The notes under the pieces are model-generated. The model did no database searches and was not told the origin of the DNA. It saw nothing but the letters and a program-made list of their open reading frames with translations. From positions 1-55,782 of IMG/VR virus record IMGVR_UViG_3300031788_000021: a DNA stretch of 55,782 nt. One strand, given 5' to 3'. The position numbers and the translations under genes were made by a program. The first letter of the stretch is position 1, and every line of letters starts with the position of its first letter. The DNA comes from a virus. Lineage: Duplodnaviria > Caudoviricetes. This document shows positions 2,544 through 47,192 of the stretch, piece by piece.

Positions 2544-2935
2544 CCGCGACCTTCCCCGTCACCATCCTCGTCACGGACCTGCCATCCATCCCCACCGGCA
2601 TCGTGATCCCACATACTGAGGGACTTTGGGCCGTGAAGCCCGTAAGAGCCACGCCCGAGGCCGTGGCCTTCATCGAGTCCTACGAGTCCGGCCTCTTCCC
2701 AGGAGCAGCCTCCCCGATAGTGAGGGAGGTCGACGCCCGAGTGATCCTGACCGGAGTCGAGCGCCTGCCCCGACCAGCGCCGGAGATTTTGTTCGCTGAC
2801 GCTGACGCTGACGCTGACGCTGACGCTGACGCTGACGCTGACGCTGACGCCGACGACTTCGTCGGATACGAGTACTTGGGATACGATCCATACTTTGAGT
2901 GGTCGCGGAACCAGATCGCGGGGAAGCTAGGATGA
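2540..2935 (+). CDS. hypothetical protein with (AD)10 tract
   Basis: GGAGG RBS before GTG; ATGA coupling to the next gene. Confidence 0.65.
   Translation: MTATFPVTILVTDLPSIPTGIVIPHTEGLWAVKPVRATPEAVAFIESYESGLFPGAASPIVREVDARVILTGVERLPRPAPEILFADADADADADADADADADADDFVGYEYLGYDPYFEWSRNQIAGKLG
2795..2854 (+). repeat. (GCTGAC)9+GCCGAC in-frame repeat
   Basis: encodes the ADADAD tract; same unit as 420-521. Confidence 0.95.
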
Positions 2936-3378
2936 GACCGGTGGATCAGCGGATAGTGGAGCGCGGTCGCGGCGACTGCCTCAGGGCTTGCCTGGCCTCG
3001 ATCCTGGAGCTGACCCCGGATCAGGTCCCGAATTTTTCCGACTTCGCGAGGTATGCCGAGGACGAGAGCTGGGCGAAGCCGATGTGGAACTTCCTCAGGG
3101 AGAGGGGCTTGGAGTTCTACTCGGTGTACCCGCCGCTGAAGCCCCACGGCTACTGCATCGCCGTGGGCAAGAGCCCGAACATCGTAGGCTGCACCCACGC
3201 TGTGGTCTGGCGCTACGACCGCCTGGTCCACGACCCGAATCCGAGCAGGAAGGGCCTGGCCGGAGAGCCCACTAATTTTCTGGTGCTGAGCAAGATCAGA
3301 GAGGAGCAAGAAGACGCACAGGGCCGCGCTGACGCGCCGCCGAACAATGTAACCACAAAGGAGAACCACCGATGCTGA
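2932..3378 (+). CDS. papain-like (C39-type) peptidase-fold protein
   Basis: GDCLRACLASIL (Cys) ... HAVV (His) ... HDPNP (Asp) motif order; ATG at 2932 overlaps the upstream stop. Confidence 0.65.
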   Translation: MRPVDQRIVERGRGDCLRACLASILELTPDQVPNFSDFARYAEDESWAKPMWNFLRERGLEFYSVYPPLKPHGYCIAVGKSPNIVGCTHAVVWRYDRLVHDPNPSRKGLAGEPTNFLVLSKIREEQEDAQGRADAPPNNVTTKENHRC

Positions 3379-4940
3379 TCAAGAATACCCTGAACGCGAC
3401 CGTCACGATCTCGGACCTGCTCCCGAGCCCCCTGGGTCCTGGCCTGATCATGGGACCCCGTTCCGAAATCATGATCTTCGACGCGGCGGCCAAGTCCTCC
3501 CGCGAACTCCAGCAGCTGCTCGCCTCCGGCGTCGTCGAGTGCATCGGTCGCCAGGAGCCTGCGGCGGCGGCTGGGGTCACCGTCAGCGGCTGCGCTTGCC
3601 CCGGTCAGGTCCTGACCGCGACCTCGAAATTATCGGCGACGTGGCAGGACCCGGACATGGCCCTGCCCCAGCGCGTGTGCCAGAGCTTCGGCGACGGCTC
3701 CGACGGCTCCATCCTGATCTCGACCGTGCCCGTGATCTTGTCCCGGGACATGTACTACGAGAACCTGTCCATAAGCGGGACCGGGTCCCTGGTCACCAAC
3801 GGCTACCGCGTCTTCGTCTCCGGGACCCTGGACCTGACCTCGGCTCCGGCGCGGGCGATCGTGGGCGGCTCCGCTCCGGGGATGGCCGCGCTCGGTAATG
3901 TCGGCGGACTCGTGCAGAGCCCAGCGATGCCGAACACCATCGGCACCAACACCCCGGGGTCGGAGGGGGCCAACGGCACAGTGGGGGCGGGGGCCGTCGG
4001 TTTTCCCGGCTCCGAGACCTCCCCCGGCAACGGCGGGGCCTCGGGAGCGTCGGGGGCTGGCGGGCTCGGCGCCTCCGGTGTCGGCGGCGCGGGGTCGCCT
4101 TCGGTGGCACCGGCGCTGGTCCTGCCGATCCGGCGCTGGTCCACGGACATGCTCCGGGGCACGCAGCTGATCCAGGGTGGGTGCTCGGGAGCTGGCGGCG
4201 GCTCCGGGGCCGGTGACGGTACCAATGCGGGAGGCGGCGGTGGCGGCGGCGCCACGGGCGGGACCGTGCTCGCTATATATGCGCGGACCATCCGCTACAG
4301 CCGGATGACGGCGGCGTCCGCCATCTGCGGAGACGGCGGGGCCGGGGGCGCGGGCGGGAGCGTCGTCGCCGGGAACTGCGGGGGCGGCGGCGGTGGCGCG
4401 GGCGCGGGCGGGGGCTGGGTCTACGTCGCCTACGAGCGCCTGTGCGGTGAGACGGCGCGGGCCGCGATCAGCGCCAACGGCGGAGTCGGAGGGGTCGGCG
4501 GCTCCGGATTCGGGACTGGTCTGGGCGGGGCCGGTGGCAGCGGCGGCTACGGTGGCAGGATCACGCTGTTGCAGGTCACGACCTCCGTAGGCGAAGAAGT
4601 CGACAAGACCGCAGTGGCGGGCGCCCCCGGGATCATCCCCGCGACCGGCGTCGGAGGCGCGGGAGGGCTGGGGACACTCGCTGTCGCCGACCTCTCCGAG
4701 TGCGGTAACCACGATCGGTTCCGTCACCACGAAGATTACGATCACGATGACCGCGATCACCACCACGACTACGACCGCGACCGCGACAGGCGCGGCGACG
4801 ACGGTAGAGGCGGTGACGACCGGGACGGAGACGGTCGCGGCGGTGATGGGGACAGTGACCGTGGCCGTGGCCGTGGCCGTGGCCGTGGCCGTGGCCGCGA
4901 CGGTGATTGCGACCGGGGCCGGGACGGTCGCCTGTACTAG
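3372..4940 (+). CDS. glycine-rich virion fibre/decoration-like protein with charged low-complexity tail
   Basis: FGDGSDG, GGGGGG..G runs and ISANGG typical of phage Gly-rich domains; N-terminus similar to 6989 and 51878; H/D/R-rich C-terminus. Confidence 0.75.
   Translation: MLIKNTLNATVTISDLLPSPLGPGLIMGPRSEIMIFDAAAKSSRELQQLLASGVVECIGRQEPAAAAGVTVSGCACPGQVLTATSKLSATWQDPDMALPQRVCQSFGDGSDGSILISTVPVILSRDMYYENLSISGTGSLVTNGYRVFVSGTLDLTSAPARAIVGGSAPGMAALGNVGGLVQSPAMPNTIGTNTPGSEGANGTVGAGAVGFPGSETSPGNGGASGASGAGGLGASGVGGAGSPSVAPALVLPIRRWSTDMLRGTQLIQGGCSGAGGGSGAGDGTNAGGGGGGGATGGTVLAIYARTIRYSRMTAASAICGDGGAGGAGGSVVAGNCGGGGGGAGAGGGWVYVAYERLCGETARAAISANGGVGGVGGSGFGTGLGGAGGSGGYGGRITLLQVTTSVGEEVDKTAVAGAPGIIPATGVGGAGGLGTLAVADLSECGNHDRFRHHEDYDHDDRDHHHDYDRDRDRRGDDGRGGDDRDGDGRGGDGDSDRGRGRGRGRGRGRDGDCDRGRDGRLY
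4859..4894 (+). repeat. (CCGTGG)6 encoding (RG)6
   Basis: direct hexamer repeat. Confidence 0.9.
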
Positions 4941-7567: not shown

Positions 7568-10500
7568 GTGGCGGACCTGTTCGGACGCTGGCGCGCGCGC
7601 CTGGCCCTCGGGGGAGACCCCGGGGGTCAGGCCGCGCCGTTGCCCAGCGCCACAAATAATCCTGATGGGTTAGCCGAACCAGAGTCTCCGAGCGCATGGA
7701 GCGGGTATGGAGACATAGGGTGGATCGGCCCGAGCGGGAATTACTACCACATCAATTACTTGACGGAGCACATGGTGTGGCTCCGCTCCCAGGGAATAAA
7801 AAAACCGGATGGTTGGGTCCGCGTCGTCTCCGCTCCGGGGGTGTCCGAACTCGGACTTGACGTAAAGGGAGAAGGTGAGCCCAATGCCAACCAATGGGCG
7901 ACGATGGAGGAGTCGGTCAGGGAGTGCGGTGAAGACGCGGAGGTCTGGGTCGAGTATCCCAGCCGGTTCGCAAAATTTGTGGCCGGAGATTTTACGGACT
8001 CGGGAAAGACCCTGAAGGATTTCTGCTCTGGCGCTGTCAAATCGGACAAGGGTCTGGGCATATTGGAGCGCTTGGCCGCGCCGTCGTTTGAGGACGGCCT
8101 AACCGCCGCGACCCGCGAACTCGTGGTCCAAGTTCTTATGGAGAACGGCGACCAGATGCTCCAGGGCGCTCTTTACGACAAGGTCGCTGCCGACCTCGTT
8201 CGGGTCTGGTCCTCCACGGGGCGTCCCCCGATAAGTTTCGAGAGCGCCAAAATCTACGCCCAGTCCGCAGTCGACATGCTATTCGAGGTCCACCGCATCG
8301 ACCGAGAGGGAGAACCCGGGACCGAGGGCATGGTCTACCTCCAGTCTGATTTGCAGATGCTCGCGGATCAGATATACGGCATGATCTATTGGAACAAGGA
8401 CCCGATGACGCTGGAGCAGATCACCGCCGCGATGAAGGACTCCGTGAGGCGGGGCCGGACTCCGCAGGCGTACGATAACCAGCAGATAGACGGCGCCATA
8501 AACTCGGCCCTGAACTACCTGATAGACGACGAGCACCGGGTGAAGGTCACGGAGCACGGCTTCGTGGCCGCAGATGCACCGAAGATCACGGTCGACGAGG
8601 CCCAGAAGGGAGAGTTCCAGCCGAAGCCAGGATCGACGCCGGTTCAGGACGTGCTCCGGAAGACGAAGTTCGTCGACCCCGAGAAGGAAAAAAATCGGCT
8701 GCTCGACGAGTTCTCGCAGGGCAAGATCACGAGAGAGGTCCTCGACCAGAAGATGCGGCAGCTTCAGGCGTCTTTCCGCGATCGCTGGCTGCGCCGCGCC
8801 GAGAACCCGTTCCAGAGCCTGGACGACCTGAAGACGATGAAGCAGATGCAGCAGGCTGGCTGGGGCCTGTTCGTATCTGGCGGCGCCTACTTCGTCATCG
8901 AGCCCGGGCAGTCGCAGCCCCGCCGGGTCTCGGTCAAGGAACTGCGGAGCATCATGCAGAGCTTCCGCTCCGCGCCCTCGGGTCCGGCGGGCGACGACTA
9001 CGCCACGGGCTACGCCCTGGGCAAGGCCTACACCGACGGCTGGTCGATGAGTGACATCTTCAACCTCGACCCGATGGAGACCCTAGAGATGGCGGGCCAC
9101 ATGTTCGCCGTCTGCGAGAAGGGTGAGCCGGGCGCGAGGCTGATGCCAGCCGAAGGCGAGGGCGGCAAGGTCGTCAAGCAGTGGTTGAAACCGCACCCCA
9201 TCGGCGTGTCCTACTCCCAGGCCAAGGACAAGAAGTCGTTCGAGCGCGGGTTCCGCGCGGGCTGGGCTGCCGGAGAGACCAAAGAGGACAAGGCCTACCG
9301 TAAGCACCAGAAGCAGCCTAAGACCAAGAAGCCAGCGCCCGCTCCGCAGCCCAAGGAGAAGGTCAACCCCGAAGACCCCTTCTGCGCTGGCTTCAACCCG
9401 ACCAAGGAGTACGTCGACGTAGACGAGGGCGTCGAGGAGGGCCAGCCCGGTTACCGGAAGCCCGTCTCCTACTGCATCTGCGGCCACGCCCCATCCAGCC
9501 ACGAGGGCTGGACTCCGGAGTGGAAGCCGGGGATGCCCCTGGGCGGCTGCCAGTCCTGCGGCACGATCGGGGATGAGGAGGGCGACGACGGCTTCAGCGA
9601 GGCCTCGCTCAAGTCCCGCTGGTTCCGCCGCGCTTCTTCCAACAGCAATCTTGGGAAGTGGTTCAAGATCACCGGAGAACTCCGGGTCTGGGCGCGGGTC
9701 CCCAAGGACCGGGATGAGAAGGTCCCGACCATCGTCCTCCCCGTGGGTACGGAAGTTATGGTCATGCTGAAGGCCGAGATGCAACTTGGCCACCTCATGG
9801 CCATGTGGATTAGTTGGCCGAATCAAAAGGTTGAAGGAGTCGACCCAGGAGACGGCGAGGGCGTCGTCCGCTGCGAGGATTTCTACCGCGCTGCGGTGCC
9901 CATAGACAACTCTGCCAATTACCAGGGCCTGGTGGTCAAGAGCATCGAGTGGAAGAACTCGGACAAGACCCTGGGCTACGCCAGGTGGGGGACGAAGCGC
10001 GTCAGTGGTGGCGTGGCCTTCGCCATCGACGCCGGTGGCTCAGTCGTTTTCCTTGAAAGTCTGGACGATCCCGAGTCGGTGATCGCCGACTTCCAGCCTG
10101 AGGAGCTGCGCGCTCCCCTGACCGAGGCGATTCAGGCCGAGACGTTGCCCAAGGGCGAGCGCCCGGGCCAGATGAGGACCACGGACGTCCCCGTCGTCGA
10201 CCCCGAGCGGGAGAAGAACCGGCTGCTCGACGAATTCTCGACGGGGAAGATCACGCGCGAGGACCTCGACCGGAAGATCAGGATGCTGGAGGCGTCGTTC
10301 AGAGCCCGGTGGTTCCGGCGCGCTGTGAAGAAGATGGATCGATCGCCATCGGTATTCGTCTTCGGCGACAATGGCTGGATCATGCCAGATGGAAAGTTTT
10401 ATGCCCTCATGGAAGAGGAGGTTCATGAAGATTTCCTTGTAAAAAATAAGCTGAAGCCAGAGGGGCTGGTTCGGGTGTCGACCTTGGCGATTCAGAATAT

Positions 10501-13500
10501 CATGCTGAATGCCGAGGATCAGCTTAACCTAAATTTCAAGGGTGAGGGCACGGTTGAACAGTGGTCAGCGGCAACGAACATGGTTATGTCCGTTGGAGAA
10601 AAAGATGGGGTGGTCGTGGAGGGCCCTGGGTTCGGAGACGTATTCTACAGAAAAGAATTTGAGGAGTCGGGCCAGACTCTTCGAGACCAAGTAACCGGCA
10701 GAGATCGATCCGCTTCGTTTAAGTCCAAGTGGTTCGAGCGCCGGGCCGACATCGAGACCCGGATTCCGATCCTGATAAAGCAGTTCTTCCCCGACGCCGA
10801 TCCGAAGCGGGCCGAGGCCCGCATCCGCGAACTCGCGGCCATCGACCCCACCGGGAAGCAGGGCAAGTACTTGACCTGGCTCCTGAAGAACGAGGTCGAT
10901 CCCGGGACCGGGACCGCCGAGGACCTGCGCGACCTCCTCGCCGTCTACGACAAGGCCAAGTCCAAGGCCAAGTTCCCGGCTCAGTACCGGGACATCAACA
11001 GGATTCTCCCCCAGGACCTGAAGAAGATCGTGGACGAGCACGGGGCGGTTTTGTCCCAGCGCGAACTCGAACTCGCGGGTCAGAAGGTCGTCCGCGACGA
11101 TCACGACTGGAAGATCACGGAGATCACGAGCCCGGCCTCGGCCTCGGCGCTGCTCAAGGGCCGGGACTGGTGCGTCAAGGACCCCAGGTTCTCGGAGCAA
11201 TACCTGGCCGACGGGCCCCTCTACCTCGTCGAGGACAAGTCCGATGGCGAGGATTACCTGATCCACCCCGGACGCGGGGAGGTCAAGGACGAGGAGAACA
11301 ATACCCCGGTCTTGCAGGCTCCGAGGCTCAAGCTGAGCCTAGGTGACGACCCGCACGTGGGCCGCGCGATCGAGCATATGGAGGTCGACGTCGAGGACAT
11401 CCTGCGCGGTATGGGCGACGGCGACTACGAGGCCTCGGACATACCGACGAACGAACTGGACACCGCGCTCGGCCTCTGCATGGAAGAATACGAGTCATAT
11501 GGATACCTCATCTGGAATGTCGTTAGCGAGATGAAGGAGCGCGACATCTCAAGTCTGATCTCGCAGTATATGTGGGCGCGCGGCACCGCTCCAGGGCAGA
11601 AACGTAAAGGGGAACCGAATCAAGCCCAAGAGGACCTGATCCAGGCTCTGCCCATTGAAGAATTCAGCGAGGCCGTCCTGGCCTCGGGCAACGCCAAGCT
11701 CATGGCGGAATTCGCGGTCAAAATCCTGAACAGCCGCTGGCCCCAGGCCGAGCCCAAGATTATGGCCAACGAAGACGCCCGGATAGCGTACACGGACAGG
11801 TTCCCAGAGGAAGAGGCCCTGGTCCCCATGTACCGGCAGCCTCCTCCGGGGGCGCCGAAGCCGGAGCCGACGGAACCCGCAGCCCGCGAGACCGAGGAAC
11901 AGACAGAGGAGTTGCCCTTGGTCGACGCCCCGAAGCCTGGGCCCGGCGAGCCCGGGCACGTGTGGGAGCGGTCGATGCAGGTGCTCAAGGACGACCTGGA
12001 GCAGGGTCAGACCGACCCCGAGAGATACGAGACCAAGCGCCGCCAGATCATGTTCAGGCCCTGGAAGCTGCGGATGAAGGACTACGTCGACCCCGCTTCC
12101 CTGAGCCGGGAGAAGCTGGAGAACACCGAGCCCGAGGCCCTGGAGGAGTACCTGAAGCAGAACAAGGACGACCTCGCGCCCTGGTACAAGAACCTCCCCT
12201 ACGGGTCCAAGTCCGAGTTCACGGCCAGGCTCTTCGGGCGCTGGCTCCGCCGCGCCGCCGCCGACGAGCCCGAGGACGCCCCGGAGTTGACGACCGAGCA
12301 GAAGGTCCAGGCCCTGCTCTACGAGATCGCGCGCGACAACGAGGTCGCGGGCTGGATTCCCGACCCGGACGAACTGATCCGCGAGGTCACGAACTTCCTA
12401 GCCAATGAGGCTGGGGTCGACTACGATCAGGTTGACCGCAAGTGGGTCGAGGGCATGGTCGCCAAACTGGAGTACCCCGGTTGGCGCGCCTACCCCGACC
12501 CCAAGGCCGACCTGCCGCCCGGGATCAAGCTCAACTCCTTCCGAGACCGTTGGCTCCGTCGCGCCAGTGTCACTCCTGAAGGCAAGTGCCCCGCGTGCCA
12601 CAAGGCTCCCGGGCCCGGACGCTGCGAGCAGTGCACTGCCGAGAACAGGTTCCCGCACAATAGCGATGGTCGGATCGAGGTTGTCGAAGATGAGGGTATG
12701 GGCACTGTCAAGGCCATAGTCTGCGACTGGTGCGGGAAGAACTTAGCCTACTTCGACAAGGATACCCCGGACAGGGAGTGCGTTGGCTACTGCACTGAGT
12801 GCAATGATAACCCAGAGGTCCAGGCTGCCTGTGATGCGCTCCTCGCCGGACTCGGTATGGAGATGACTCCGGAGGGTCTCATGCAGGGAGAGCCCGTGGA
12901 GGACACGAGGATGATGGTGTCCGACGTCCCTTCCATGTCATCGGCGGATAAAAACAATGCCCTTAACAAACTCTTGGACCAGCATGAGAAGGCGGACCCC
13001 GAGACGAAGAAGATGCTGGAAGTGAAGATGCGGGAGTTGATGGGGAGTCGCTCTTGCTGGCTCCGCCGGTCCGCTCGGGCCAAGGCCCTGGTCCTCGACC
13101 CCCAGGTCTCGGTGGATCAGGAATTGATGGACCAGTACCTGGCCGTGGTCAAGAAGATGATCGATCATCCGGAGTCGGCGCAGGTCATCGAGAGTCAGAG
13201 GGTGGACCTCCACAACCGCCTGCGCGAGGACGCGCGGGTGCGGTTGCTGCGCAGGACCAGGGCCGAGGACACGGACCCGGGGTGGGACGACGACGTCTTC
13301 TTCCCCGTGGTGGAGAAGTTCGTGGAGGGCGTGCTCGGCTCTGAGGACTTCAACCGCTTCCTACAGGTATGGGATACGGCGAGCGAGCTGCGCGAGACCC
13401 GTCGCGCCTCCGACGCTTCGGTGCCCACCCCCTCCTCCAACCCCGATCACGATATAGCGCTCTACAACCTCCAGGACTCCGAGATTGAGCCGCTGCCCAA

Positions 13501-16500
13501 GCAGATTTGGGACGGGTACGAGCAGGCCAACTACCTCGGGATCGCGCTTGAGTGCTCCGGCGACATCTTCCGCGAACTCGTGGGCTGGAACGTCTGCGAG
13601 GGCTACGTCGGGGAGAAGACGCGGCGGATCAGGGTCTACTGGGACCGGCTGTTCCGACCGATAGAGCCCGAGGCTGAGGCCCTCTGCAAGCAGCTGGTCG
13701 CGCTGTGGTCGGGGATGGACTTGAACGGGAAGAGCCCGAGGCTGCTGGCGGTTCGGGCCCTGAACGTCGCGCTCGCGGCCCACGACAAGGCCGGGGCTGA
13801 AGCGGCGCTGAGTCAGGTCGAGGCCGGGAAGAAGAAGGCCTACTTCCGTAATCGCTGGCTCCGGTGCTTGGCCAAGGTATCTGATAATATCGGGGACGGG
13901 CTCGAATGGAGGCCCTCGAAAAAATGGCCCCCCAAGCCAGGTGACAGATACTTCTTCGAGTACCACTGCGAGGAGAGCGAGGGGTCGGCTGACGCTGAGT
14001 TGTGGCACCGCACACACCAGCCAGTTGAGGTCCTGGCAGTAGACGAGCCCAGTACCCCCGAGGGTGAGGCAGACGGAATCTTTGGCGCCTACACGATCAA
14101 GTTCCTGGATGGTTTTGAGGGATGCGCTGTCGGGGACGAACTCCTTGACTCCCCTGAACAATACGTCCGGCCCGATTATCGATCATCCCGCCGCGCCTCC
14201 TCGTCCAAGCGCAAGAAGTCCAAGAAGGGCACCGAGACCTTCAATGGCTTGGAGATCGCGATCGAGTTCTACCCCGGAGACCAGAAGACCTGCGACAGCG
14301 GCGACGTCGTGGACTATGATGACTTCTACGGCGAGGTCAAGGGCACGCAGACGATAGCCGACGGCGAGCCCGTCGACGTCTACCTGGCCGAGGACGCCCA
14401 CGGCAACGACGATCGCCCGGTCTTCGTCATCCACCAGCTGAAGAAGGACAAGTCCTACGACGAGGACAAGGTCATGCTCGGCTTCGTTGATGAGGCTGCG
14501 GCCATGAAGTGCTACGAGACCTCGGGTCCGCCCTGGGGCTTCGGGAGCCTCGATACCATGACCTGGGACCAGTTCCTCAACGGCTACCTCAAGAGTCACC
14601 AGTCCGCAGAGGACATGGGCGCCAAGTCCATGCCCGAGATCAAGGCCAGGTGGATGGCGCGCCGCGCCAGCAACAACGAGCAGAAACTGCTCAGGGAACT
14701 CGTCTGCACCGTGATCGGCTCCGACTCCATGACGGTCAACGAAGCCGTGCTCCCGGCGGGAACCGTCGTCGGCGTGCAGCCCCAGAGCAACGACCACACC
14801 ATCTTCTTCTACAGCCCACTCTACTCTCGGATGATCGAGCACGGAAAGACGTGGCGCAGCAACCAGTATGCCGCAAGCGTCGAGGATTTCCGCGCGGCCA
14901 CGGACATCGGGTACGGCGAGGGCACGGGCTACGAGCATGGCCCCGAGTGCTTCTGCGACGAGTGCATGGCGAAGGACGACCTCTTCACCCATCGCTGCCC
15001 GAGCTGCGGCAGCCGGGAGTGCCCAGGGGACGGCGACACCATCGACTGCCGCAAGCCCGGGACGATGACCCCGGAGGACGTCCCGGTGGAGACCCGCGAC
15101 AGCCTGCTCGACCGCTTCAACCGTGGTGAGATCGACGAGAAGGAGCTGCGCCGCCGCATGAAGCAGATTTCCATCCTTGTTCGGTGGATGCGGCGGCGCG
15201 CCAATGGCGAAACCTGGCGCTGCACTAGCTGCGATTTTGAGACTAATTCAGACGGATGGGCACAAGAGCACGCGGAGGAAACTGGTCACAGTATAGTTAG
15301 TCAGGGCAGGAAAGAGGAGACCCAACAAGATCATCTGGCGGGCCAGATATTATTTGCAGTCGAGCGCGACCTATCCCGTAACGGTCCCATGAAAGAGAGC
15401 GTCCTCAAGGCGGAGATGATGCGCCCCTGGGATGGTGTCGATAAAGAATTTTTTGATCTAGTTTTCAATAAGGCTCTGGCGATCCTTAATAAGTCTGGGA
15501 AGATTGAATTTAATCCATCGACCGACTCCTGGCAGATCAAGGGGGAGGTCCCGATCGCGAGTCTCCCTGAGTCCCCATCTGAGGTCCCGACTTTTAAGGG
15601 GCGTCAGCGGGAGATCGTGATCGACAAGCTGCTCGACCGCTGGAGCAAGGAACCCGGCGCACGCCCGCAGATCGAAGAGCAGTTGAGATCGTTGCGGGCG
15701 TTTAAGGCCTTATTCATGATGCGGCGCCGGGCCGTCGCCGACTACGAACTCCGGGTTGAACTCTGGTGCGGTCACAACGAGAATCTGCCCGTGGCGCGCG
15801 AGCGCTACCGTAAGGCCAAGGCCGTGGCTGACCAGTTTGGAGTTAGGTTCTGGTCCGAGGAGCACGATGAGGACAGGGACAACGTCTACGCCGACGGCTA
15901 CATCTACCCGACGACCAGGAATATCTTGGACGTCCTGTCCGCCTTGGATGCGGTTGGGGTCGAGTACGACAATGTCGATCTCCCGCAGGAACTTGAAGGG
16001 TCGACGATATACCGGGCGGTACGGGGCGCGATGCCCCGGAGTGTCGACGTCAACATCGGTACGATTCCAGCACGGATGGCGTCCTCCCGCGATCGGTGGA
16101 TGCGGCGCCGCGCTTCCCCCCTGGACGACCCCTCCAAGGACGTCAACGTCGACGGCTACATGCTGCGCCCCGAGGAGATGTCCGAGCCCTACTGGATCAA
16201 CGCCTGGATCAGCCCCAGTGGGAAGTTCTGCCCTATGGTCGGCATCAACCACGAGGACTTCATCGTCGAGCGCACAATCAGCGAGTTGATCGCCGAGGGC
16301 TGGATCAGGTTCGTGGCCGCAGAGTCCGGGACCGCGATCATCGACACGATCGCGGAGCCGACGTCGGCGCAGATGCCGGTGGTCGAGGCCCTGTTCTTCA
16401 TGTCCCCGGTCAAGACCCTAGAGATGGGGGTCGGCGATGACGAGGACTGGGGCTCGTTCTCGACCGTGTCCAAGATCACGGAGAACGATTTGAATGGCGG

Positions 16501-18685
16501 GTCACTGGCTGATGAAATCCACCGCGTGTTTCAGGATCAGGGCCAGAGGTTCACGGACCTGGGCAGGGACTGGTCGAAGCCGGAGGCTTCGTTCCGTGGC
16601 CGCTGGATCGCGGCCAAGAAGAAGTCCCGCCGCGAGCGCCAGGAGGCCAAGAACCCGGACCTCAAGCGCGAGAGCGACCTCATCCGCGAGAACAAGGAGA
16701 AGCCCGAGGCCAAGGCCCCCGAGAAGCGGCCCCAGATCGAGCAGCAGATCAAGTCCCTGGGCGCGCTGCGGGCGCTGTGGCGCGTTCGCGTCGCCGCCCG
16801 TAAGGACTGGAGCGCGTCCTTCCTCTTCGACCCAGTGGAGAATCCCGTCCCCTTCCCCAAGCCCGGCCAGAAGTCGGGGCTCTGGCGCGCCGGGGTCTGG
16901 AACGAGGGTGAGGACGACCTGGACCAGCTCTGGAAGCTGACCGTGGACAACGACTCCAAGTATTACGAGGCTGCGAAGCGCTCTCTCCCTGAATTATTCG
17001 GGAAGAATGACGGGTTCCTTGAGGGGATGCCGCTGCCGGTCAGGAACTACCCCAGGGCCGTGGCCTTCCTCAAGCGCATCTTCCCCCAAGCGTGCGAGGA
17101 GCACATCTACCCGACGTGGGGCAAGGCCGAGCCCGAGCCCGGCCACGAGGGAGACCCTTTCTATCAGGGCAGCAACCAGTGGAAGGATCAGGCGAAGGAC
17201 GTAATCGGGATCATCAAGGGCCTCTACGGCGAGGAGCAGGGCGCGGTGGAGCTGGAGAAGTTTTTGGGTCGCCTCAAGCCCGGCGAGCGTGAGGACTTCC
17301 TGGAGGAGGCCGCCGAGGACCCGCTTGCGGGCATGATCCGGGGCTTCCAGGATATCATCGACAAGCAGAGGGGCGTGGCCCCCAAGGCCAAGCCCAGCCC
17401 CAAGTCCGAGCTATTCGAGGAGCACGTTAAGGAGATGCCGATGCTGGACGAGCAGGAGCGCCAGGAGAGAATAGACGCGTTGCTGGATCAGCTTCCACAA
17501 ACAACCAGTGATGAGGAGAAGCGCCAGATCGAGCAACGCATCCGTTCCCTTCGGGCGTCGCTAAAGTCCGCGTGGCTGCGGAGCGCGGCCCGCAAGAAGA
17601 AGGTCCCGAAGCAGGAGCCCGTAGTCGACGATTCCCCGGAACCTACCGAGCCAGAAGAGGACGATATCATCATCAGCAAGTCGCGGCGCGGGTACTCCGC
17701 GCGGCAGAGCGGTAAAGAAGTCGCCAGCGCCGATAAGTACGATACCCTGCTCTGGCGCGTGAAGGAGTACATGGACAAGGCCAAGTTCTGGCCCAACGTC
17801 TGGGACCAGGGTGAGCGCGGAAACTGCAACCTCATCACGTCAACGGTCCATTCCTGGAAGCCGCCGGTGCCCCCTCCTTACGGGATCGAGGCCATGACCC
17901 TGGCCAAGAACATCTTCGCGGAGTTGTCTCCGGAAGAACTCCAGGGCGCGATGCAGGCCTACAATTCTTATCCCAATGGTTACCAGGGCGCGATGAGGCG
18001 CCTCTCTGATTGGGCCAAGAGCAACACCGGGGGCATGGAGCCGGACGTCCCCGAGTTCACCGACTCCTCTTTTTGGGAGGGCGTCGGCATCCAGGTCGTG
18101 CGCATGGTCGAGGAGGAGCAGAAGCGGGCTGAGGAGAAGAAGATCAAGAACCAGACCCCGAGTGCACCGACCGAGCGCGGACCCGATGACGTCCCGGTCA
18201 TGGACCCGGCCATGAACCAGAAGACCATCGATCGCCTCCTGGACGAGTACGTGGGGGCCGACCCCGAGAAGCGTGAGCAGATCGAGAATCGCCTGCGCAG
18301 CCTCAGGATGGGGTTCAGGTCCCTGTGGTTCCGCCGCGCCCACTGCGGCGCCTGCCACGAGATTCAGTTCGCGGCCCTGCACACGCTCGCGGACATCGCC
18401 GCCGAGCACCCGGACCTGGTGAGTAAGGACCTGATCGGCAAGCTCAGCGAGATGACGTCGGGTATGCACATCCAGGAGTTCGCCGACGAGCTGGTGGACG
18501 TCGCCCTCAAGATCGAGGGCACCGAGGGGCTGGAGGACAAGGTCAAGGAGCTGCGGAACAAGGCCAAGGTCCTGACCATGATCGAGAACGGGATCGACGA
18601 CGGCGACATCGAGGTCATCGACGAGCCCAAGGAAGGATCAACCAGATTCAAGTGGCTCAAGAGAGCCGCCAAGGAGGCCGCATGA
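7568..18685 (+). CDS. giant modular polyvalent polyprotein, 3705 aa; putative internal virion cargo
   Basis: uninterrupted ORF; about 18 W-centred RRA linkers; InPase domain, PcfJ-like module, Zn fingers, three paralogous GWIxPxG domains. Confidence 0.9.
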   Translation: MADLFGRWRARLALGGDPGGQAAPLPSATNNPDGLAEPESPSAWSGYGDIGWIGPSGNYYHINYLTEHMVWLRSQGIKKPDGWVRVVSAPGVSELGLDVKGEGEPNANQWATMEESVRECGEDAEVWVEYPSRFAKFVAGDFTDSGKTLKDFCSGAVKSDKGLGILERLAAPSFEDGLTAATRELVVQVLMENGDQMLQGALYDKVAADLVRVWSSTGRPPISFESAKIYAQSAVDMLFEVHRIDREGEPGTEGMVYLQSDLQMLADQIYGMIYWNKDPMTLEQITAAMKDSVRRGRTPQAYDNQQIDGAINSALNYLIDDEHRVKVTEHGFVAADAPKITVDEAQKGEFQPKPGSTPVQDVLRKTKFVDPEKEKNRLLDEFSQGKITREVLDQKMRQLQASFRDRWLRRAENPFQSLDDLKTMKQMQQAGWGLFVSGGAYFVIEPGQSQPRRVSVKELRSIMQSFRSAPSGPAGDDYATGYALGKAYTDGWSMSDIFNLDPMETLEMAGHMFAVCEKGEPGARLMPAEGEGGKVVKQWLKPHPIGVSYSQAKDKKSFERGFRAGWAAGETKEDKAYRKHQKQPKTKKPAPAPQPKEKVNPEDPFCAGFNPTKEYVDVDEGVEEGQPGYRKPVSYCICGHAPSSHEGWTPEWKPGMPLGGCQSCGTIGDEEGDDGFSEASLKSRWFRRASSNSNLGKWFKITGELRVWARVPKDRDEKVPTIVLPVGTEVMVMLKAEMQLGHLMAMWISWPNQKVEGVDPGDGEGVVRCEDFYRAAVPIDNSANYQGLVVKSIEWKNSDKTLGYARWGTKRVSGGVAFAIDAGGSVVFLESLDDPESVIADFQPEELRAPLTEAIQAETLPKGERPGQMRTTDVPVVDPEREKNRLLDEFSTGKITREDLDRKIRMLEASFRARWFRRAVKKMDRSPSVFVFGDNGWIMPDGKFYALMEEEVHEDFLVKNKLKPEGLVRVSTLAIQNIMLNAEDQLNLNFKGEGTVEQWSAATNMVMSVGEKDGVVVEGPGFGDVFYRKEFEESGQTLRDQVTGRDRSASFKSKWFERRADIETRIPILIKQFFPDADPKRAEARIRELAAIDPTGKQGKYLTWLLKNEVDPGTGTAEDLRDLLAVYDKAKSKAKFPAQYRDINRILPQDLKKIVDEHGAVLSQRELELAGQKVVRDDHDWKITEITSPASASALLKGRDWCVKDPRFSEQYLADGPLYLVEDKSDGEDYLIHPGRGEVKDEENNTPVLQAPRLKLSLGDDPHVGRAIEHMEVDVEDILRGMGDGDYEASDIPTNELDTALGLCMEEYESYGYLIWNVVSEMKERDISSLISQYMWARGTAPGQKRKGEPNQAQEDLIQALPIEEFSEAVLASGNAKLMAEFAVKILNSRWPQAEPKIMANEDARIAYTDRFPEEEALVPMYRQPPPGAPKPEPTEPAARETEEQTEELPLVDAPKPGPGEPGHVWERSMQVLKDDLEQGQTDPERYETKRRQIMFRPWKLRMKDYVDPASLSREKLENTEPEALEEYLKQNKDDLAPWYKNLPYGSKSEFTARLFGRWLRRAAADEPEDAPELTTEQKVQALLYEIARDNEVAGWIPDPDELIREVTNFLANEAGVDYDQVDRKWVEGMVAKLEYPGWRAYPDPKADLPPGIKLNSFRDRWLRRASVTPEGKCPACHKAPGPGRCEQCTAENRFPHNSDGRIEVVEDEGMGTVKAIVCDWCGKNLAYFDKDTPDRECVGYCTECNDNPEVQAACDALLAGLGMEMTPEGLMQGEPVEDTRMMVSDVPSMSSADKNNALNKLLDQHEKADPETKKMLEVKMRELMGSRSCWLRRSARAKALVLDPQVSVDQELMDQYLAVVKKMIDHPESAQVIESQRVDLHNRLREDARVRLLRRTRAEDTDPGWDDDVFFPVVEKFVEGVLGSEDFNRFLQVWDTASELRETRRASDASVPTPSSNPDHDIALYNLQDSEIEPLPKQIWDGYEQANYLGIALECSGDIFRELVGWNVCEGYVGEKTRRIRVYWDRLFRPIEPEAEALCKQLVALWSGMDLNGKSPRLLAVRALNVALAAHDKAGAEAALSQVEAGKKKAYFRNRWLRCLAKVSDNIGDGLEWRPSKKWPPKPGDRYFFEYHCEESEGSADAELWHRTHQPVEVLAVDEPSTPEGEADGIFGAYTIKFLDGFEGCAVGDELLDSPEQYVRPDYRSSRRASSSKRKKSKKGTETFNGLEIAIEFYPGDQKTCDSGDVVDYDDFYGEVKGTQTIADGEPVDVYLAEDAHGNDDRPVFVIHQLKKDKSYDEDKVMLGFVDEAAAMKCYETSGPPWGFGSLDTMTWDQFLNGYLKSHQSAEDMGAKSMPEIKARWMARRASNNEQKLLRELVCTVIGSDSMTVNEAVLPAGTVVGVQPQSNDHTIFFYSPLYSRMIEHGKTWRSNQYAASVEDFRAATDIGYGEGTGYEHGPECFCDECMAKDDLFTHRCPSCGSRECPGDGDTIDCRKPGTMTPEDVPVETRDSLLDRFNRGEIDEKELRRRMKQISILVRWMRRRANGETWRCTSCDFETNSDGWAQEHAEETGHSIVSQGRKEETQQDHLAGQILFAVERDLSRNGPMKESVLKAEMMRPWDGVDKEFFDLVFNKALAILNKSGKIEFNPSTDSWQIKGEVPIASLPESPSEVPTFKGRQREIVIDKLLDRWSKEPGARPQIEEQLRSLRAFKALFMMRRRAVADYELRVELWCGHNENLPVARERYRKAKAVADQFGVRFWSEEHDEDRDNVYADGYIYPTTRNILDVLSALDAVGVEYDNVDLPQELEGSTIYRAVRGAMPRSVDVNIGTIPARMASSRDRWMRRRASPLDDPSKDVNVDGYMLRPEEMSEPYWINAWISPSGKFCPMVGINHEDFIVERTISELIAEGWIRFVAAESGTAIIDTIAEPTSAQMPVVEALFFMSPVKTLEMGVGDDEDWGSFSTVSKITENDLNGGSLADEIHRVFQDQGQRFTDLGRDWSKPEASFRGRWIAAKKKSRRERQEAKNPDLKRESDLIRENKEKPEAKAPEKRPQIEQQIKSLGALRALWRVRVAARKDWSASFLFDPVENPVPFPKPGQKSGLWRAGVWNEGEDDLDQLWKLTVDNDSKYYEAAKRSLPELFGKNDGFLEGMPLPVRNYPRAVAFLKRIFPQACEEHIYPTWGKAEPEPGHEGDPFYQGSNQWKDQAKDVIGIIKGLYGEEQGAVELEKFLGRLKPGEREDFLEEAAEDPLAGMIRGFQDIIDKQRGVAPKAKPSPKSELFEEHVKEMPMLDEQERQERIDALLDQLPQTTSDEEKRQIEQRIRSLRASLKSAWLRSAARKKKVPKQEPVVDDSPEPTEPEEDDIIISKSRRGYSARQSGKEVASADKYDTLLWRVKEYMDKAKFWPNVWDQGERGNCNLITSTVHSWKPPVPPPYGIEAMTLAKNIFAELSPEELQGAMQAYNSYPNGYQGAMRRLSDWAKSNTGGMEPDVPEFTDSSFWEGVGIQVVRMVEEEQKRAEEKKIKNQTPSAPTERGPDDVPVMDPAMNQKTIDRLLDEYVGADPEKREQIENRLRSLRMGFRSLWFRRAHCGACHEIQFAALHTLADIAAEHPDLVSKDLIGKLSEMTSGMHIQEFADELVDVALKIEGTEGLEDKVKELRNKAKVLTMIENGIDDGDIEVIDEPKEGSTRFKWLKRAAKEAA
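14228..14593 (+). other. inorganic pyrophosphatase (InPase) domain within the polyprotein
   Basis: GLEIAIE ... YGEVKGT..ADGEPVDVYL ... VFVIHQ ... YDEDKVMLGF ... MTWDQF, the pattern of polyvalent-protein InPase domains. Confidence 0.85.
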
Positions 18686-19945: not shown

Positions 19946-21634
19946 GTGGATACACCAGCACAGGGAGGAGTTCTGGACGGCGAAGAAGAACCGATAGTCT
20001 TCAGCATGGCAGACGCCTTCTCCTCGCTGATGGACGTCCCCATCCGCGAGGTTGAGGCCGACCGCCACGAGGGGGACGTCCTCGCGCCTTCTGTCTCCGC
20101 CCGCTCCTTCGTCGACCCCCAGGGATTCACCAAGTACTATTTTAATCAGACCCTGTGCTCGAACCAGGTCGACATCGTCGGGGCCCTGACCTCCGACGCC
20201 AGGACCTCGATCACGGTCGAACCTCGACAAGTAGGTAAAACCAGTTCGGTCGCGGTTGCTTGCTCGATCCTGTGCGAGACCGAGGGCTTGGAGTGGAACA
20301 AGGACCATCCCGAATCCTACCGCATCGGCATCTTCGCGCCGAAGGCGGCGCAGGCGCAGCTGGACACGGACAGGATCAAGTCCTGGGCGCGATACACGAA
20401 GCAGGGCCGGGCCCTGATCAACTGGGAGGAGTCGACGAACGATAGGATCGTCTGGCACAACGGATCAGAGATCAGGATTTACTCCGCGTCTGAGCAGGCC
20501 GAGAACGACGGCAAGACCCTGAACCGGATCATCCTGGAAGAGGCGCAGAAGATCAGCGACGTCGTCGTGAGCCAGTCGATCCTGCCCATGGGCGGAGCGG
20601 TCGCGGCGAAGATCGCCAAGATCGGGACCGTGCGCCCGATCCGCAACCACTTCTTCAACTCGTGGCACAACGACGCGAAGGCCTTGAAGACCTGGCACCA
20701 CTGGCTGATCTGCGATAACCTCCTGCGCGGCGGCTTCCGCGAGTACGGTGGCCGCAAGATCAGCCAGTACGTCCTCGATATGATGCCCCTGGCCGAGAAG
20801 GAAAAGTACATCCGCGCGGGAATCTTCCCCCAGAACCCCGACTTCTACTACCCCGGTCAGCAGGAACTCAACGACTTCCTGACCCAGTACGAACTCCGGT
20901 GGCTGGAGCAGTTCGGCCTCTTCCTGGATGGTCGGGAGAAGGCGATCCTCTTCAGCGGGTTCACCCCGTTCCAGGATTCTCAGAAGTCTATGGAGGAGGA
21001 GATATACGCGGGCATCGACTTCGCGACCGGGGTCGGGGCCGACGAGACCGCTGTTTCGGTCTGGCGCCGCCGGGGAGCGGTCCTGACCAAGATATGGGGC
21101 TGTTCCTGGTCGGACATGCCCGCGCCAGATCAGAAGCGGGAGCTGCTCAACCTCTTCTGCAAGCGGGGCCCGTTCTACGGAGTGCGACTGGGCCTCGGCG
21201 ACTTCGGCGGCAACGGTGCCGCCATCATCCCGGAGCTGGCCGAGGCCGGGCTCCCGTTCCAGAGCATCAGCTTTGGCTCCAACGACAAGAACATCGTCGG
21301 GGCCTCGATGAACATGAAGACGTCGATGTTCCTCGACTTCAAGCGCCAGCTCCAGATGGGGTGGCTGCGCTACCCCGTCATGGACTCGTCGACGCCGATC
21401 GAGTTGCAGATGGACTATCAGAAGGGCGTCCGGCAGTGGACGGCCCTGGAGCAGGAGATCATCGGCTTCGGTATCAACCGCCGCATCCAATCCCCAGACT
21501 CGGATCACGACGACCTGTGCTGTGCCGACATTTTAGCAGTGCGCGCGGCCAAGATCGGACCGCAGCCCCTGGGCCAGCGCCGGTCCACGATCGGGCCGAT
21601 GCCATACTTCATCGTCAGGAGCCAGTTCCGATGA
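19946..21634 (+). CDS. terL: terminase large subunit
   Basis: Walker A EPRQVGKT, Walker B IILEEAQ, KIGT coupling motif, RNase H-like nuclease AGIDFA..DETA ... DHDDLCCAD. Confidence 0.92.
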   Translation: MDTPAQGGVLDGEEEPIVFSMADAFSSLMDVPIREVEADRHEGDVLAPSVSARSFVDPQGFTKYYFNQTLCSNQVDIVGALTSDARTSITVEPRQVGKTSSVAVACSILCETEGLEWNKDHPESYRIGIFAPKAAQAQLDTDRIKSWARYTKQGRALINWEESTNDRIVWHNGSEIRIYSASEQAENDGKTLNRIILEEAQKISDVVVSQSILPMGGAVAAKIAKIGTVRPIRNHFFNSWHNDAKALKTWHHWLICDNLLRGGFREYGGRKISQYVLDMMPLAEKEKYIRAGIFPQNPDFYYPGQQELNDFLTQYELRWLEQFGLFLDGREKAILFSGFTPFQDSQKSMEEEIYAGIDFATGVGADETAVSVWRRRGAVLTKIWGCSWSDMPAPDQKRELLNLFCKRGPFYGVRLGLGDFGGNGAAIIPELAEAGLPFQSISFGSNDKNIVGASMNMKTSMFLDFKRQLQMGWLRYPVMDSSTPIELQMDYQKGVRQWTALEQEIIGFGINRRIQSPDSDHDDLCCADILAVRAAKIGPQPLGQRRSTIGPMPYFIVRSQFR

Positions 21635-26923: not shown

Positions 26924-26954
26924 AGGCCAAGGGCTCAAGCCCTCGGAGGTAGTT

Positions 26955-31599: not shown

Positions 31600-31618
31600 G
31601 GGACCAGGAGAACAGACC

Positions 31619-34600: not shown

Positions 34601-34759
34601 ACGCACGACTGGTGCACGCTCTGGAACACGGCGGTGGAGAACCTGGTGATGCTGCCGAGCGGGGCCGTCGTCCCCAAGAGCATGGCGGGGATGTCCTCCG
34701 AGCCCCACGGCGAGGGCGGACCCCGGCAGTTCGGTCGGGACATGGATCAGAGCGGGTGA
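31619..34759 (+). CDS. large modular putative internal head protein
   Basis: AGGAG RBS before ATG 31619; many [KR]xA motifs; [16 protein letters not shown] domain; Zn ribbons. Confidence 0.85.
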
Positions 34760-44495: not shown

Positions 44496-44726
44496 ATGAG
44501 CATGATCAAGCAAGGAGCACCGAAGGAGTCAAAGGTACTGGGCTTCGATCCGGCGGCGGGCTGGGTCGACCCCAAGTCCAAGGCCCAGCCTATGATCCCA
44601 GAACTGAACGTCTCGTGCCCGAACTGCCGCGTCCTGGCCCAGGCCAGCGCCGACGGCACCGTCTTCTGCCCGAAGTGCGGGATGATCATAAATCCCAGCA
44701 GCACCAACGAGAGGAAACCCCTATGA
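44496..44726 (+). CDS. small Zn-ribbon protein
   Basis: CPNC ... CPKCG. Confidence 0.7.
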   Translation: MSMIKQGAPKESKVLGFDPAAGWVDPKSKAQPMIPELNVSCPNCRVLAQASADGTVFCPKCGMIINPSSTNERKPL

Positions 44727-47179: not shown

Positions 47180-47192
47180 GAGGGAGGAGCAG

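Follow-up and report, generated by a model that had tools for sequence, protein, structure and literature searches.

A short peptide tag is found at every module boundary and at both ends of a giant protein of an uncultured peat phage, and this tag is where modules are acquired, lost and reordered, from one relative to another as well as in natural populations. The gene lies on a metagenome-assembled contig, which was analysed over its whole length of 55,782 nucleotides (the window). We consider it reasonably probable that the product, encoded in the head-morphogenesis block, belongs to the phage-type polyvalent (multi-module) proteins and that the tag is a shared head-assembly recognition signal, serving both as address and as cut site or its immediate neighbour. 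Polyvalent proteins are regarded as the first that a phage delivers into the cell, and ever since their description it has been asked how the head takes them up and whether, and at which points, they are cleaved. The giant gene spells the presumed signal 18 times, with stand-alone modules, a tag-less capsid protein and population variants as natural controls.

A tag at every module boundary of the giant protein

The tag is about 11 residues long, with the consensus (A)S[FL][RK]xRWx(x)RRA, and its copies are separated by segments of 56-504 aa (Table 1). Upstream of the start of the reading frame only three codons are open. Seventeen copies are centred on W and one is an F-variant (at 15698); these 18 had been reported in the first-pass annotation and were all recovered at the places given there, exactly or a few bases off, and a nineteenth, degenerate copy (GLGILERLAA, about 8054-8083) was found at a module junction. 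With 2000 residue shuffles of the giant protein as the baseline, the pattern W.RRA occurred six times (shuffle mean 0.03, maximum 2), W.{1,2}RR.?A 11 times (mean 0.12, maximum 3) and a loose tag pattern 15 times (mean 1.2, maximum 6), confirming that the motif is enriched over shuffled sequence.

Table 1 Positions in the window of the giant reading frame, its tags and modules, and related features of the head region
Feature	Position	Strand	Remarks
Giant ORF	7568-18685	+	3705 codons/aa, GTG start, about 17 modules, 18-19 tag copies
Tag 1, ADLFGRWRARLA	7571-7606	+	Residues 2-13, N-terminal leader position; relatives begin likewise
First 'GW' module	7607-8047	+	Paralogues at 10325-10747 and 16115-16630; E 4e-13, 1.8e-6, 0.011
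Degenerate tag, GLGILERLAA	8054-8083	+	L002 has an extra module and full tag inserted here
Tag 2, ASFRDRWLRRA	8768-8800	+	Long linker from 8645; breakpoint in L002 and peat contigs
Tag 3, ASLKSRWFRRA	9602-9634	+	Peat-contig joint 13055>9618
Tag 4, ASFRARWFRRA	10292-10324	+	Long linker from 10169; joint 10320>10710
Tag 5, ASFKSKWFERRA	10712-10747	+	Codon-level listing and peat-contig comparison
Tag 6, ARLFGRWLRRAA	12224-12259	+	Breakpoints in L002 and peat contigs
Tag 7, NSFRDRWLRRA	12533-12565	+	Peat-contig joint 8797>12537
Tag 8, MGSRSCWLRRSA	13040-13075	+	Long linker from 12920; breakpoints in L002 and peat contigs
Tag 9, AYFRNRWLRCLA	13838-13873	+	Degenerate
InPase domain PF18823	14219-14575	+	aa 2218-2336, inside module aa 2103-2367; E 8.8e-20
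Tag 10, PEIKARWMARRA	14633-14668	+	
Most conserved module, Cys-rich	14669-15202	+	aa 2368-2545; 68-79% identical in 8 relatives (P0004-P0011)
Tag 11, ISILVRWMRRRA	15167-15202	+	Long linker from 15047; breakpoints in L002 and peat contigs
Tag 12, AFKALFMMRRRA	15698-15733	+	F instead of W; long linker from 15578
Tag 13, ASSRDRWMRRRA	16079-16114	+	Breakpoint in L002
Tag 14, PEASFRGRWIAA	16580-16615	+	Degenerate; peat-contig joint 15202>16584
Tag 15, GALRALWRVRVAA	16760-16798	+	Long linker from 16643
Tag 16, ASLKSAWLRSAA	17555-17590	+	Long linker from 17435
Module with stand-alone counterpart P0043 (233 aa)	17567-18340	+	Aligned tag to tag
Tag 17, MGFRSLWFRRA	18308-18340	+	Long linker from 18185; joint 18175>18341
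Tag 18, GSTRFKWLKRAA	18635-18670	+	5 residues ahead of the stop codon
Large terminase	19946-21634	+	1.3 kb downstream of giant ORF
Long linker and W-less tag ASIRAMMLRRA	26495-26653	+	ORF 23858-26923 (1021 aa); E 3e-16
Tag-like TRLGQRWFRRKS	30398-30433	+	ORF 29291-30598 (435 aa), ahead of C-terminal domain of about 55 aa
Tag-like site	31060-31089	+	ORF 30595-31599 (334 aa), after Zn-ribbon-like stretch
Portal protein with intein	39256-42297	+	
Prohead protease gene with intein	44615-46858	+	PHROG 'head maturation protease'; candidate enzyme for any cleavage
Charged 989-aa protein	47178-50147	+	Lies between the protease and capsid genes; resembles a scaffold in position and composition only
Major capsid protein, 303 aa	50841-51752	+	phrog_2522, E 6e-82; without tag

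About 17 segments act as independent homology units, and the expectation that tags are not crossed by any recognised domain or block of homology held: the InPase domain lies within one module and the blocks end at tags. The first-pass annotation had called the segments mostly unrelated, which is right in general; three of them nevertheless share a paralogous domain (aa 14-160, 920-1060 and 2850-3021), and about eight to nine end in a homologous longer linker of some 50 aa. InPase is the sole Pfam domain in the giant protein (71 bits against a cut-off of 26.8), and its homologues in cultured phages are annotated as minor head or virion proteins. Relatives add ART-PolyVal, nucleotidyltransferase and thymidylate-kinase domains (PF18760, PF01909 and PF02223, precomputed Pfam annotation). 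The 'library of effectors' envisaged earlier is documented in part, by the one Pfam domain of the giant protein and the further named domains of the relatives. When its first 3000 residues were compared with cultured phages by tblastn, the InPase part alone matched, so that no cultured relative with proteomics was at hand. For the ORFs flanking the giant gene no family matches were obtained.

Exchange of modules at the tags and selection on the tag

Ten relatives keep the tags and permute the modules, the order being different in every one of them. Among 913 pairwise HSP ends from 10 family proteins, 34% fell within 10 aa of a strict tag, compared with 6.2% (maximum 8.5%) in 200 randomisations. 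The differences to a relative of 95-98% identity and to contigs from peat metagenomes consist of entire modules, and the breakpoints fall in tag DNA. Six collinear blocks were aligned between L002 and the window (76-99% nucleotide identity in the shared blocks), and eight of the ten internal block ends were located in or beside tag DNA, the other two in a long linker. In the peat-metagenome contigs, both ends were in tag or linker DNA for six of the ten listed joints; among these six, one module had been transposed (8797>12537 with 13055>9618) and others precisely deleted (10320>10710, 12255>13058 and 15202>16584), and two joints were seen in two runs. The prediction that orthologues would show conserved linkers and swapped modules was therefore realised in the relatives, in L002 and in the peat contigs. 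With alignment A3, a search of viral contigs yielded the two relatives already known and no others. As the giant gene contains no exact repeat of at least 18 nt, recombination between long identical repeats was ruled out as the mechanism of exchange.

Breakpoints would also pile up at the tags if only recombinants with whole modules survived. We regard as unlikely, while giving it some weight, the explanation built on this, namely that the tag is tolerated as a helical spacer between modules that fold independently and that the chain stays uncut, in the virion or in the cell. The position of the breakpoints is the outcome expected from selection for intact modules, and the capsid protein has no tag; moreover, giant virion proteins can stay uncut, such as the N4 virion RNA polymerase, which is described as packaged unprocessed in passages of PMC5512222. 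Nevertheless, a spacer would have no need to retain W, RR and A in lineages of both high GC and high AT content, to occupy residue 2 of the protein, or to head or end stand-alone single-module genes, where there is nothing to space, and its recurrence in other head-region proteins would be unexpected.

The profile of the linker takes in 45 proteins. As a leader would, the tag lies within the first 16 residues in 17 of 48 family proteins, stand-alone modules included, a count in which some N-terminal tags depend on gene calls: the start of P0031 is an internal position in P0055, and the recorded start of P0003 lies downstream of a tag-bearing GTG start that is kept in its L002 counterpart. Four of the 48 end exactly after W-x-basic-basic. 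In low-GC relatives, single modules are separate genes that start with M-S-W-L-K-Q-A and stop directly after W-L-K-Q. P0043, present on six contigs of up to 158 kb, corresponds to one window module from tag to tag; on contig L018 one gene ends in ...GWFRR-stop and another begins with MSNWFKQA, and in G001 a separate gene begins with MGLFDFWKRRRE. Searches for loci with split forms gave none, either with P0043 in viral contigs or with alignment A2 in metagenome contigs, and a degenerate DNA pattern for M-S-W-L-K-Q-A hit two unrelated loci (L016 and L017) with no tag-ended gene upstream.

Codon usage shows that selection on the protein maintains the tag: where copies agree in 10 of 11 residues, six of these are encoded by different codons. 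Likewise, the same tag positions hold R/R in high-GC relatives and K/Q in low-GC relatives. Hydrophobic residues occupy positions -4, 0, +1 and +4 and basic residues positions -3, -1, +2 and +3, and the tag is predicted to form a basic amphipathic helix. In about half of the copies (eight) it extends a predicted helix-turn-helix of some 40 residues; AlphaFold2 modelled the long linker as a helix (12-25), a turn and a second helix (30-51) running through the tag, with a mean pLDDT of 76.6. Such a hydrophobic and basic pattern, predicted to be helical and present in many copies per chain, also fits Arg/Trp amphipathic helices that bind nucleic acid or membrane with no cleavage, anchoring the modules to the DNA in the head or, at entry, to the membrane of the host. 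We consider this improbable: Gln or Asn replaces the second Arg in low-GC relatives (WLKQA, WLKNA), which weakens a purely electrostatic role, and such binding does not explain why a small residue invariably follows the basic pair or why natural stops fall exactly before that residue. Readings of the tag as a Tat signal, a 2A-like skipping peptide or a SecM-like arrest peptide were dropped: neither the order of the residues nor their spacing fits, and for such peptides a position at residues 2-13 or at a natural stop would be senseless. An HMM of the short tag, run over all ORFs of the window and of G001, was poorly discriminating at such length.

Head-gene block and candidate role of the tag

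The terminase, portal, protease and capsid genes lie in the same strand block as the giant ORF, and G001 shows synteny over this block. Elsewhere in the head region of the window, weaker copies of the tag or long linker are present in three further ORFs, which the first-pass annotation had overlooked. In ORF 23858-26923 the tag is followed by a C-terminal domain of about 85 aa, and a second tag-like site is found at 24950-24982; P0025, a homologue of ORF 29291-30598, has the full long linker and tag at the matching position, and P0016 shows the same Zn-ribbon-like/tag junction as ORF 30595-31599. A six-frame scan detected the full W-type tag in the giant ORF only, and no tag was found in the major capsid protein or the protease; hence the tag, unlike the T4 and phiKZ motifs, is not a general site of all head proteins.

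The candidate enzyme has a Ser/His pair (His156 and Ser207) that is invariant across 33 aligned homologues (47 homologues are known in all), and its orthologue in G001 is intein-free. Foldseek placed T4 gp21 (5jbl, E 0.011, probability 0.91) and herpesvirus proteases at the top, all of them weak matches (best E 0.011, TM 0.23-0.43, none at E 0.001 or below), and the intein-free protease had no match among Pfam and PDB sequences. The predicted complex of the G001 protease (alignment A4) with a 58-residue G001 linker scored 0.09, a value that counts neither for nor against an interaction. Herpesvirus proteases cut at V/L/I-x-A|S, and the similar pattern [LIVM]-x-A-S occurs six times in the 989-aa scaffold-like protein against 1.4 expected, which is a lead only because five patterns were tested on 30 genes. 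That protein had no family match. The tag consensus has no conserved Glu, whereas gp21-type enzymes cut after Glu, according to passages of PMC5694885.

From these sequence features we infer that the tag is a capsid-targeting and/or cleavage signal. It would direct the giant protein, or each module, into the procapsid interior, much as the T4 capsid-targeting sequence (CTS) does, and would be, or adjoin, the cut site of the Ser/His prohead protease; the separated modules would then be kept inside the head and reach the cell together with the DNA. Candidate scissile bonds are RR|A (KQ|A in low-GC relatives) or A|S just upstream of the helix. At tag 1, a cut at RR|A would free only a 13-residue peptide. 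More tentatively, as a possibility that we would not put first, the tag with its optional helix-turn-helix may be a lineage-wide, portable 'address and cut here' signal, by which tagged modules are loaded, released and injected separately; phage populations could then reshuffle, delete and import modules freely because the tag brackets every one. If so, the giant protein would represent a natural plug-and-play cargo system, an injected toolkit of very high variability, that differs from the T4 CTS in sequence and protease site. Already as an address and cut signal of the giant protein, the tag would account for the fast diversification of injected effector repertoires in soil phage populations and offer a compact handle to package foreign proteins in capsids of a non-T4 lineage. 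Together with the natural controls, the intein-free protease orthologue opens the questions of loading and cleavage to direct testing.

The cutting enzyme might instead be part of the chain, with one unannotated module acting as the peptidase for the tags in the way suggested for the MPTase domains of polyvalent proteins. Embedded peptidases have been proposed to split polyvalent proteins (Iyer et al., passages of PMC5512222), most modules here have no annotation, and one module is conserved in all close relatives. This alternative is nonetheless very improbable: HExxH was found in 0 of 11 giant family members and no peptidase family was detected in the giant protein in Pfam or PHROGs, so any cutting would need an enzyme in trans, and stand-alone tagged modules such as P0043 would need one anyway. 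The conserved module gave an uninformative best match in the ESM Atlas (score 0.82) and no match in a host/prophage search of GTDB genomes; a search with aa 2356-2548 among shorter proteins gave two matches, both multi-module, and thus no stand-alone form. Finally, we give practically no weight to the view that the ORF is an assembly chimera or its repeats are due to chance, even though the window was assembled from a metagenome, as an identical protein (P0002) is encoded on three contigs of up to 159 kb, half or more of the sampled words were present in 19 runs, contigs of runs X4 and X8 (17/19 and 31/41 of them, respectively, at 99% identity or more) cover the whole gene with no joints, internal exact repeats of at least 18 nt are lacking, and the enrichment is far above that of the shuffles.

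Comparison with known systems

No description in print of a repeated inter-module tag array was found. The giant protein is probably a phage-type polyvalent protein that follows a logic like that of the T4 CTS. It resembles polyvalent proteins in being a very large protein of many disparate modules, encoded among late or virion genes and containing InPase, as described in passages of PMC5512222. InPase is listed there among the domains restricted to polyvalent proteins of the phage type (Iyer, Burroughs, Anand, de Souza, Aravind 2017), in accord with the first-pass annotation, which had linked InPase to this class, and with the PF18823 match. In the same passages these proteins are predicted to be packaged, delivered with the DNA, processed into units and subject to cassette-like recombination. 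Their processing is ascribed to an embedded zincin-like MPTase, whereas none was detectable in the giant protein. Moreover, the word 'linker' is absent from the main text of PMC5512222 and no repeated inter-module peptide occurs in its passages, while in the giant protein one and the same conserved peptide flanks each module and stands at the N-terminus as well.

In T4, the CTS on IPI-III and Alt is a leader of 10-20 residues that serves for addressing and cleavage, is removed by the prohead protease gp21 and can be moved to foreign proteins (passages of PMC5694885). The tag is likewise a short N-terminal leader common to otherwise unrelated proteins, and by its best, weak fold match the protease may belong to the same fold class. 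It differs in being Arg/Trp-rich and unrelated in sequence, with no gp21 motif (L/I-x-E), and in being repeated 18 times in one chain and also found at C-termini. In phiKZ and SPN3US, ejection and inner-body proteins have propeptides cut at A/S/G-x-E, one prohead protease processes many head-internal proteins, paralogues share identical N-terminal leaders, and the cargo is ejected into the host, according to parts of PMC5694885. Those systems use separate genes, long propeptides and a Glu motif common to capsid and portal proteins, in contrast to the one polyprotein, other motif and motif-free capsid protein of the peat phage.

In polymorphic toxins, a short junction motif, such as VENN in CdiA, marks variable modules and exchange points, and the tag resembles it as a conserved junction motif at which variable modules are exchanged. 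The cassette recombination of polyvalent proteins has itself been likened to polymorphic toxins (passages of PMC5512222). The differences are one junction against many, the phage-head context, and the secretion and trafficking domain, which was not found by Pfam at the N-terminus of the giant protein. Immunity genes were not noticed beside the giant ORF, although they were not specifically sought. In the P22 scaffolding protein, a C-terminal basic helix-turn-helix binds coat and suffices to bring fused cargo into the procapsid; the long linker, for which a helix-turn-helix with a basic last helix is predicted, may be comparable to it.

The tag array and its conservation as protein

The giant ORF at 7568-18685 has 3705 open codons from a GTG, with only 3 open codons upstream, and an identical giant protein is recorded on three contigs of up to 159 kb. 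All 18 copies of the Arg/Trp tag listed in the first-pass annotation were recovered in place, and a nineteenth, degenerate copy lies at about 8054-8083. Against 2000 protein shuffles, W-x-RRA was found 6 times (mean 0.03, maximum 2) and a looser form 15 times (mean 1.2, maximum 6). The tag array is a real feature of the ORF. A pool of 49 + 64 non-redundant tag instances across the family gave the consensus (A)-S-[LFI]-[RLK]-x-R-W-x-(x)-R-R-A-[ASG]; the sequence just behind it is acidic and rich in proline. Positions -4, 0, +1 and +4 are hydrophobic and -3, -1, +2 and +3 basic, a spacing that suggests an amphipathic helix. Eight copies form the end of a repeat some 50 residues long (the long linker), for which an AlphaFold2 model predicts a helix at 12-25, a turn, and a helix at 30-51 that continues through the tag (mean pLDDT 76.6, with lower values over the tag).

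The segments between tags measure 56-504 residues. They had been described as mostly unrelated, which stands except for three paralogous modules and the common long linkers. The sole Pfam-named domain of the giant protein, an InPase domain (residues 2218-2336), lies inside one segment. Tag copies identical at 10 of 11 residues encode six of those residues with different codons, the giant gene holds no exact repeat of at least 18 nt, and low-GC relatives carry Lys/Gln (W-L-K-Q-A) where the window phage has Arg/Arg. At the level of sequence, these observations indicate that selection acts on the tag as protein.

Exchange of modules at the tags

A word-indexed search yielded ten giant relatives of 2167-3831 residues. 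Conserved linkers with swapped modules had been predicted for such orthologues, and all ten indeed retain tags while differing in module order and set. Among 10 family proteins (the query plus the relatives P0003-P0011), 34% of 913 pairwise HSP ends fell no more than 10 residues from a strict tag, compared with 6.2% for random positions (maximum 8.5%); HSP starts did so in 14%. The closest relative, L002, has blocks in common with the window that are 76-99% identical in nucleotides, and whole modules of the giant gene are inserted, deleted or replaced between the two. Their six collinear blocks have ten internal ends, eight in or beside tag DNA and two in a long linker.

The window phage was detected in peat metagenomes, with half or more of its sampled words in 19 runs. 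These runs come from several studies, and one metatranscriptome run held a small share of the words (0.05). Contigs from runs X4 and X8 matched the window with no joints. Those from X12 and X14 contained ten joints, taken from contigs rather than reads, and assemblers can be confused by strain mixtures; both ends lay in tag or linker DNA in six and inside modules in four. Joints 8797>12537 and 13055>9618 together relocate one module; 10320>10710, 12255>13058 and 15202>16584 are clean deletions; and 18175>18341 precisely removes one long linker and tag. Two of the tag/linker joints were common to X12 and X14. As tags account for some 6% of the giant gene, this concentration is far from chance. 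Misassembly across repeats is unlikely because the gene lacks an 18-nt repeat, and the absence of long identical repeats also makes classical homologous recombination an unlikely route of exchange between tag copies. The pattern would fit microhomology-based or illegitimate events, with selection keeping those that leave tag-flanked modules intact.

Leader-like tags and the head-gene block

The giant protein starts with a tag at residues 2-13, and five residues separate its last tag from the stop. When the eight long linkers were made into a profile and scored against 1.84 billion representative proteins, only 45 matched at E 0.001 or below, and many of these did so over several stretches. The tag lies in the first 16 residues of 17 of 48 family proteins, positions that depend on gene calls, and four of the 48 end exactly after W-x-basic-basic. 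The tag of P0031, a family member, corresponds to an internal one in P0055, which is longer; the recorded start of the relative P0003 is downstream of a tag-bearing GTG start retained by its L002 counterpart. P0043, a stand-alone module of 233 residues recorded on six contigs of up to 158 kb, aligns end to end with residues 3334-3591 of the window giant protein; it begins with a tag's W (M-S-W-L-K-Q-A), and its stop follows W-L-K-Q of the next tag. The multi-module relative P0027 is on a contig of 158,150 bp, the same size as the longest P0043 contig, though possibly a different one. On L018 (1597 bp), the one low-GC contig examined at the DNA level, one gene closes with G-W-F-R-R-stop, another opens with M-S-N-W-F-K-Q-A, and G-W-F-K-I-A occurs inside a third, cut ORF. 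A separate 255-residue gene of the relative G001 starts M-G-L-F-D-F-W-K-R-R-R-E. Judged from these gene sequences, the tag behaves as a leader and not only as a linker. The IMG/VR contig L017 (10,938 bp, an unrelated phage) has a gene for a protein of roughly 1200 aa that starts M-S-W-F-K-Q-A (match 4873-4899, minus strand); the likeness may equally be fortuitous or reflect a remote use of this leader.

The 55,782-bp window covers an entire IMG/VR record, with an estimated completeness of 38% and about 63% G+C, and almost every long ORF is on the + strand. The positions of the terminase, portal, protease and capsid genes put the giant ORF at the upstream edge of the head-morphogenesis block, which is syntenic with G001, a 139-kb relative of IMG/VR class provirus.

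Head-block genes and neighbouring ORFs of the window
Feature	Position	Basis or remark
Large terminase	19946-21634	closest cultured relative Bacillus phage G gp1, 32% identity
353-aa ORF	26889-27950	phrog_2522 in last ~60 residues only, E 3e-10
1064-aa long low-complexity protein	31565-34759	DUF7417 (PF24192, E 7e-18)
521-aa ORF, mid head block	34612-36177	mCpol (minimal CRISPR polymerase, PF18182, E 1.5e-20) / Cas10 palm domain
Portal with intein	39256-42297	family search
Second intein-bearing gene (587 aa, unnamed)	42731-44494	family search
Head-maturation protease with intein	44615-46858	family search
989-aa scaffold-like protein	47178-50147	no family match
Major capsid protein	50841-51752	phrog_2522 (major head protein) over full length, E 6e-82

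The inteins of the three consecutive head genes are of Hint/LAGLIDADG type; the protease orthologue in G001 is a 348-aa ORF without one. The head block is an unusual site for the cyclase-type signalling domain of the mCpol ORF. The upstream, 353-aa ORF matching phrog_2522 may be a diverged paralogue or an auxiliary capsid protein.

In a six-frame scan of the window, the W-type tag occurred among real genes in the giant ORF only, and the major capsid protein, protease and portal carry no tag. ORF 23858-26923 has a long linker with a W-less tag near its C-terminus (E 3e-16) and could be another cargo or core protein of smaller size; its 1021 aa also hold two internal repeats of about 100 aa, a (PAQ/APAQ)n run and a DUF-like match to phrog_7247. 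ORF 29291-30598 has a tag-like peptide ahead of its last ~55 residues, where its homologue P0025 has a full long linker and tag, and in ORF 30595-31599, as in the family protein P0016, a Cys-rich stretch is followed by G-W-R-N-K-K-A. In G001, a 608-residue ORF (86379-88202, minus strand) gave one weaker long-linker match (E 5e-4), and a 1849-aa open frame (87938-93484, minus strand) has no strict tags; both lie between the giant tagged gene and the terminase, and the window has no counterpart of either.

Candidate processing, rival readings and known systems

On the observed anatomy, protein-level conservation, exchange at tags, leader-like use on separate genes and head-gene context, we build the reading towards which we lean: a head-cargo protein of the polyvalent kind, with a portable address-and-seam peptide on every module. 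The tag would bring the chain into the procapsid, the prohead protease would cut at or beside it, and the pieces would enter the host with the DNA. The earlier interpretation of the array as a combined loading and cleavage tag is partly supported.

The head-block protease has 47 homologues; across an alignment of 33 rows, His156, Ser207 and a number of Asp/Asn residues do not vary. Its AlphaFold2 model (mean pLDDT 73.7) best matched T4 gp21 in the PDB (5jbl, E 0.011, probability 0.91), then herpesvirus proteases; as no fold match reaches E 0.001, the assignment is suggestive only. One candidate scissile bond is RR/A (KQ/A in low-GC relatives), which matches natural stops right after the basic pair; the other, A/S immediately ahead of the helix, would keep the tag attached to the next module's N-terminus and matches the N-terminal tags. 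The 989-residue protein contains six [LIVM]-x-A-S sites (1.4 expected), only a lead, from one of 150 pattern-gene tests; the motif resembles the herpesvirus protease site. This highly charged protein, encoded between the protease and capsid genes, also has two RRA sites (0.3 expected), and L-G-S-L-W-R-V at its C-terminus resembles a degenerate tag.

The main rival, an uncut chain with purely structural seams, is unlikely but deserves weight; it has to be set beside the separate genes that start or stop within a tag. We consider it improbable that the Arg/Trp helix, with its basic and hydrophobic positions, is an anchor for DNA or membrane. An embedded-peptidase route is proposed for polyvalent proteins in passages of PMC5512222. 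HExxH was present in none of 11 giant family members and family searches detected no peptidase in the giant protein, which leaves that route without a visible enzyme there; self-processing by a module not recognised as a peptidase is very improbable. An artefact is scarcely conceivable beside the shuffling results.

Compared with phage-type polyvalent proteins, the giant protein shows the tested features except their frequent embedded peptidase. The tag is similar in logic to the T4 capsid targeting sequence and the phiKZ/SPN3US propeptides, as described in passages of PMC5694885, but it lacks the Glu-type site of T4, and in contrast to both systems the window capsid protein is without the motif. 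Module exchange at a conserved junction resembles that of polymorphic toxins; PMC5512222, whose main text does not contain the word 'linker', had made this comparison for polyvalent proteins. Full-text searches, followed through abstracts and passages of papers, yielded no account of a comparable tag repeated between modules.
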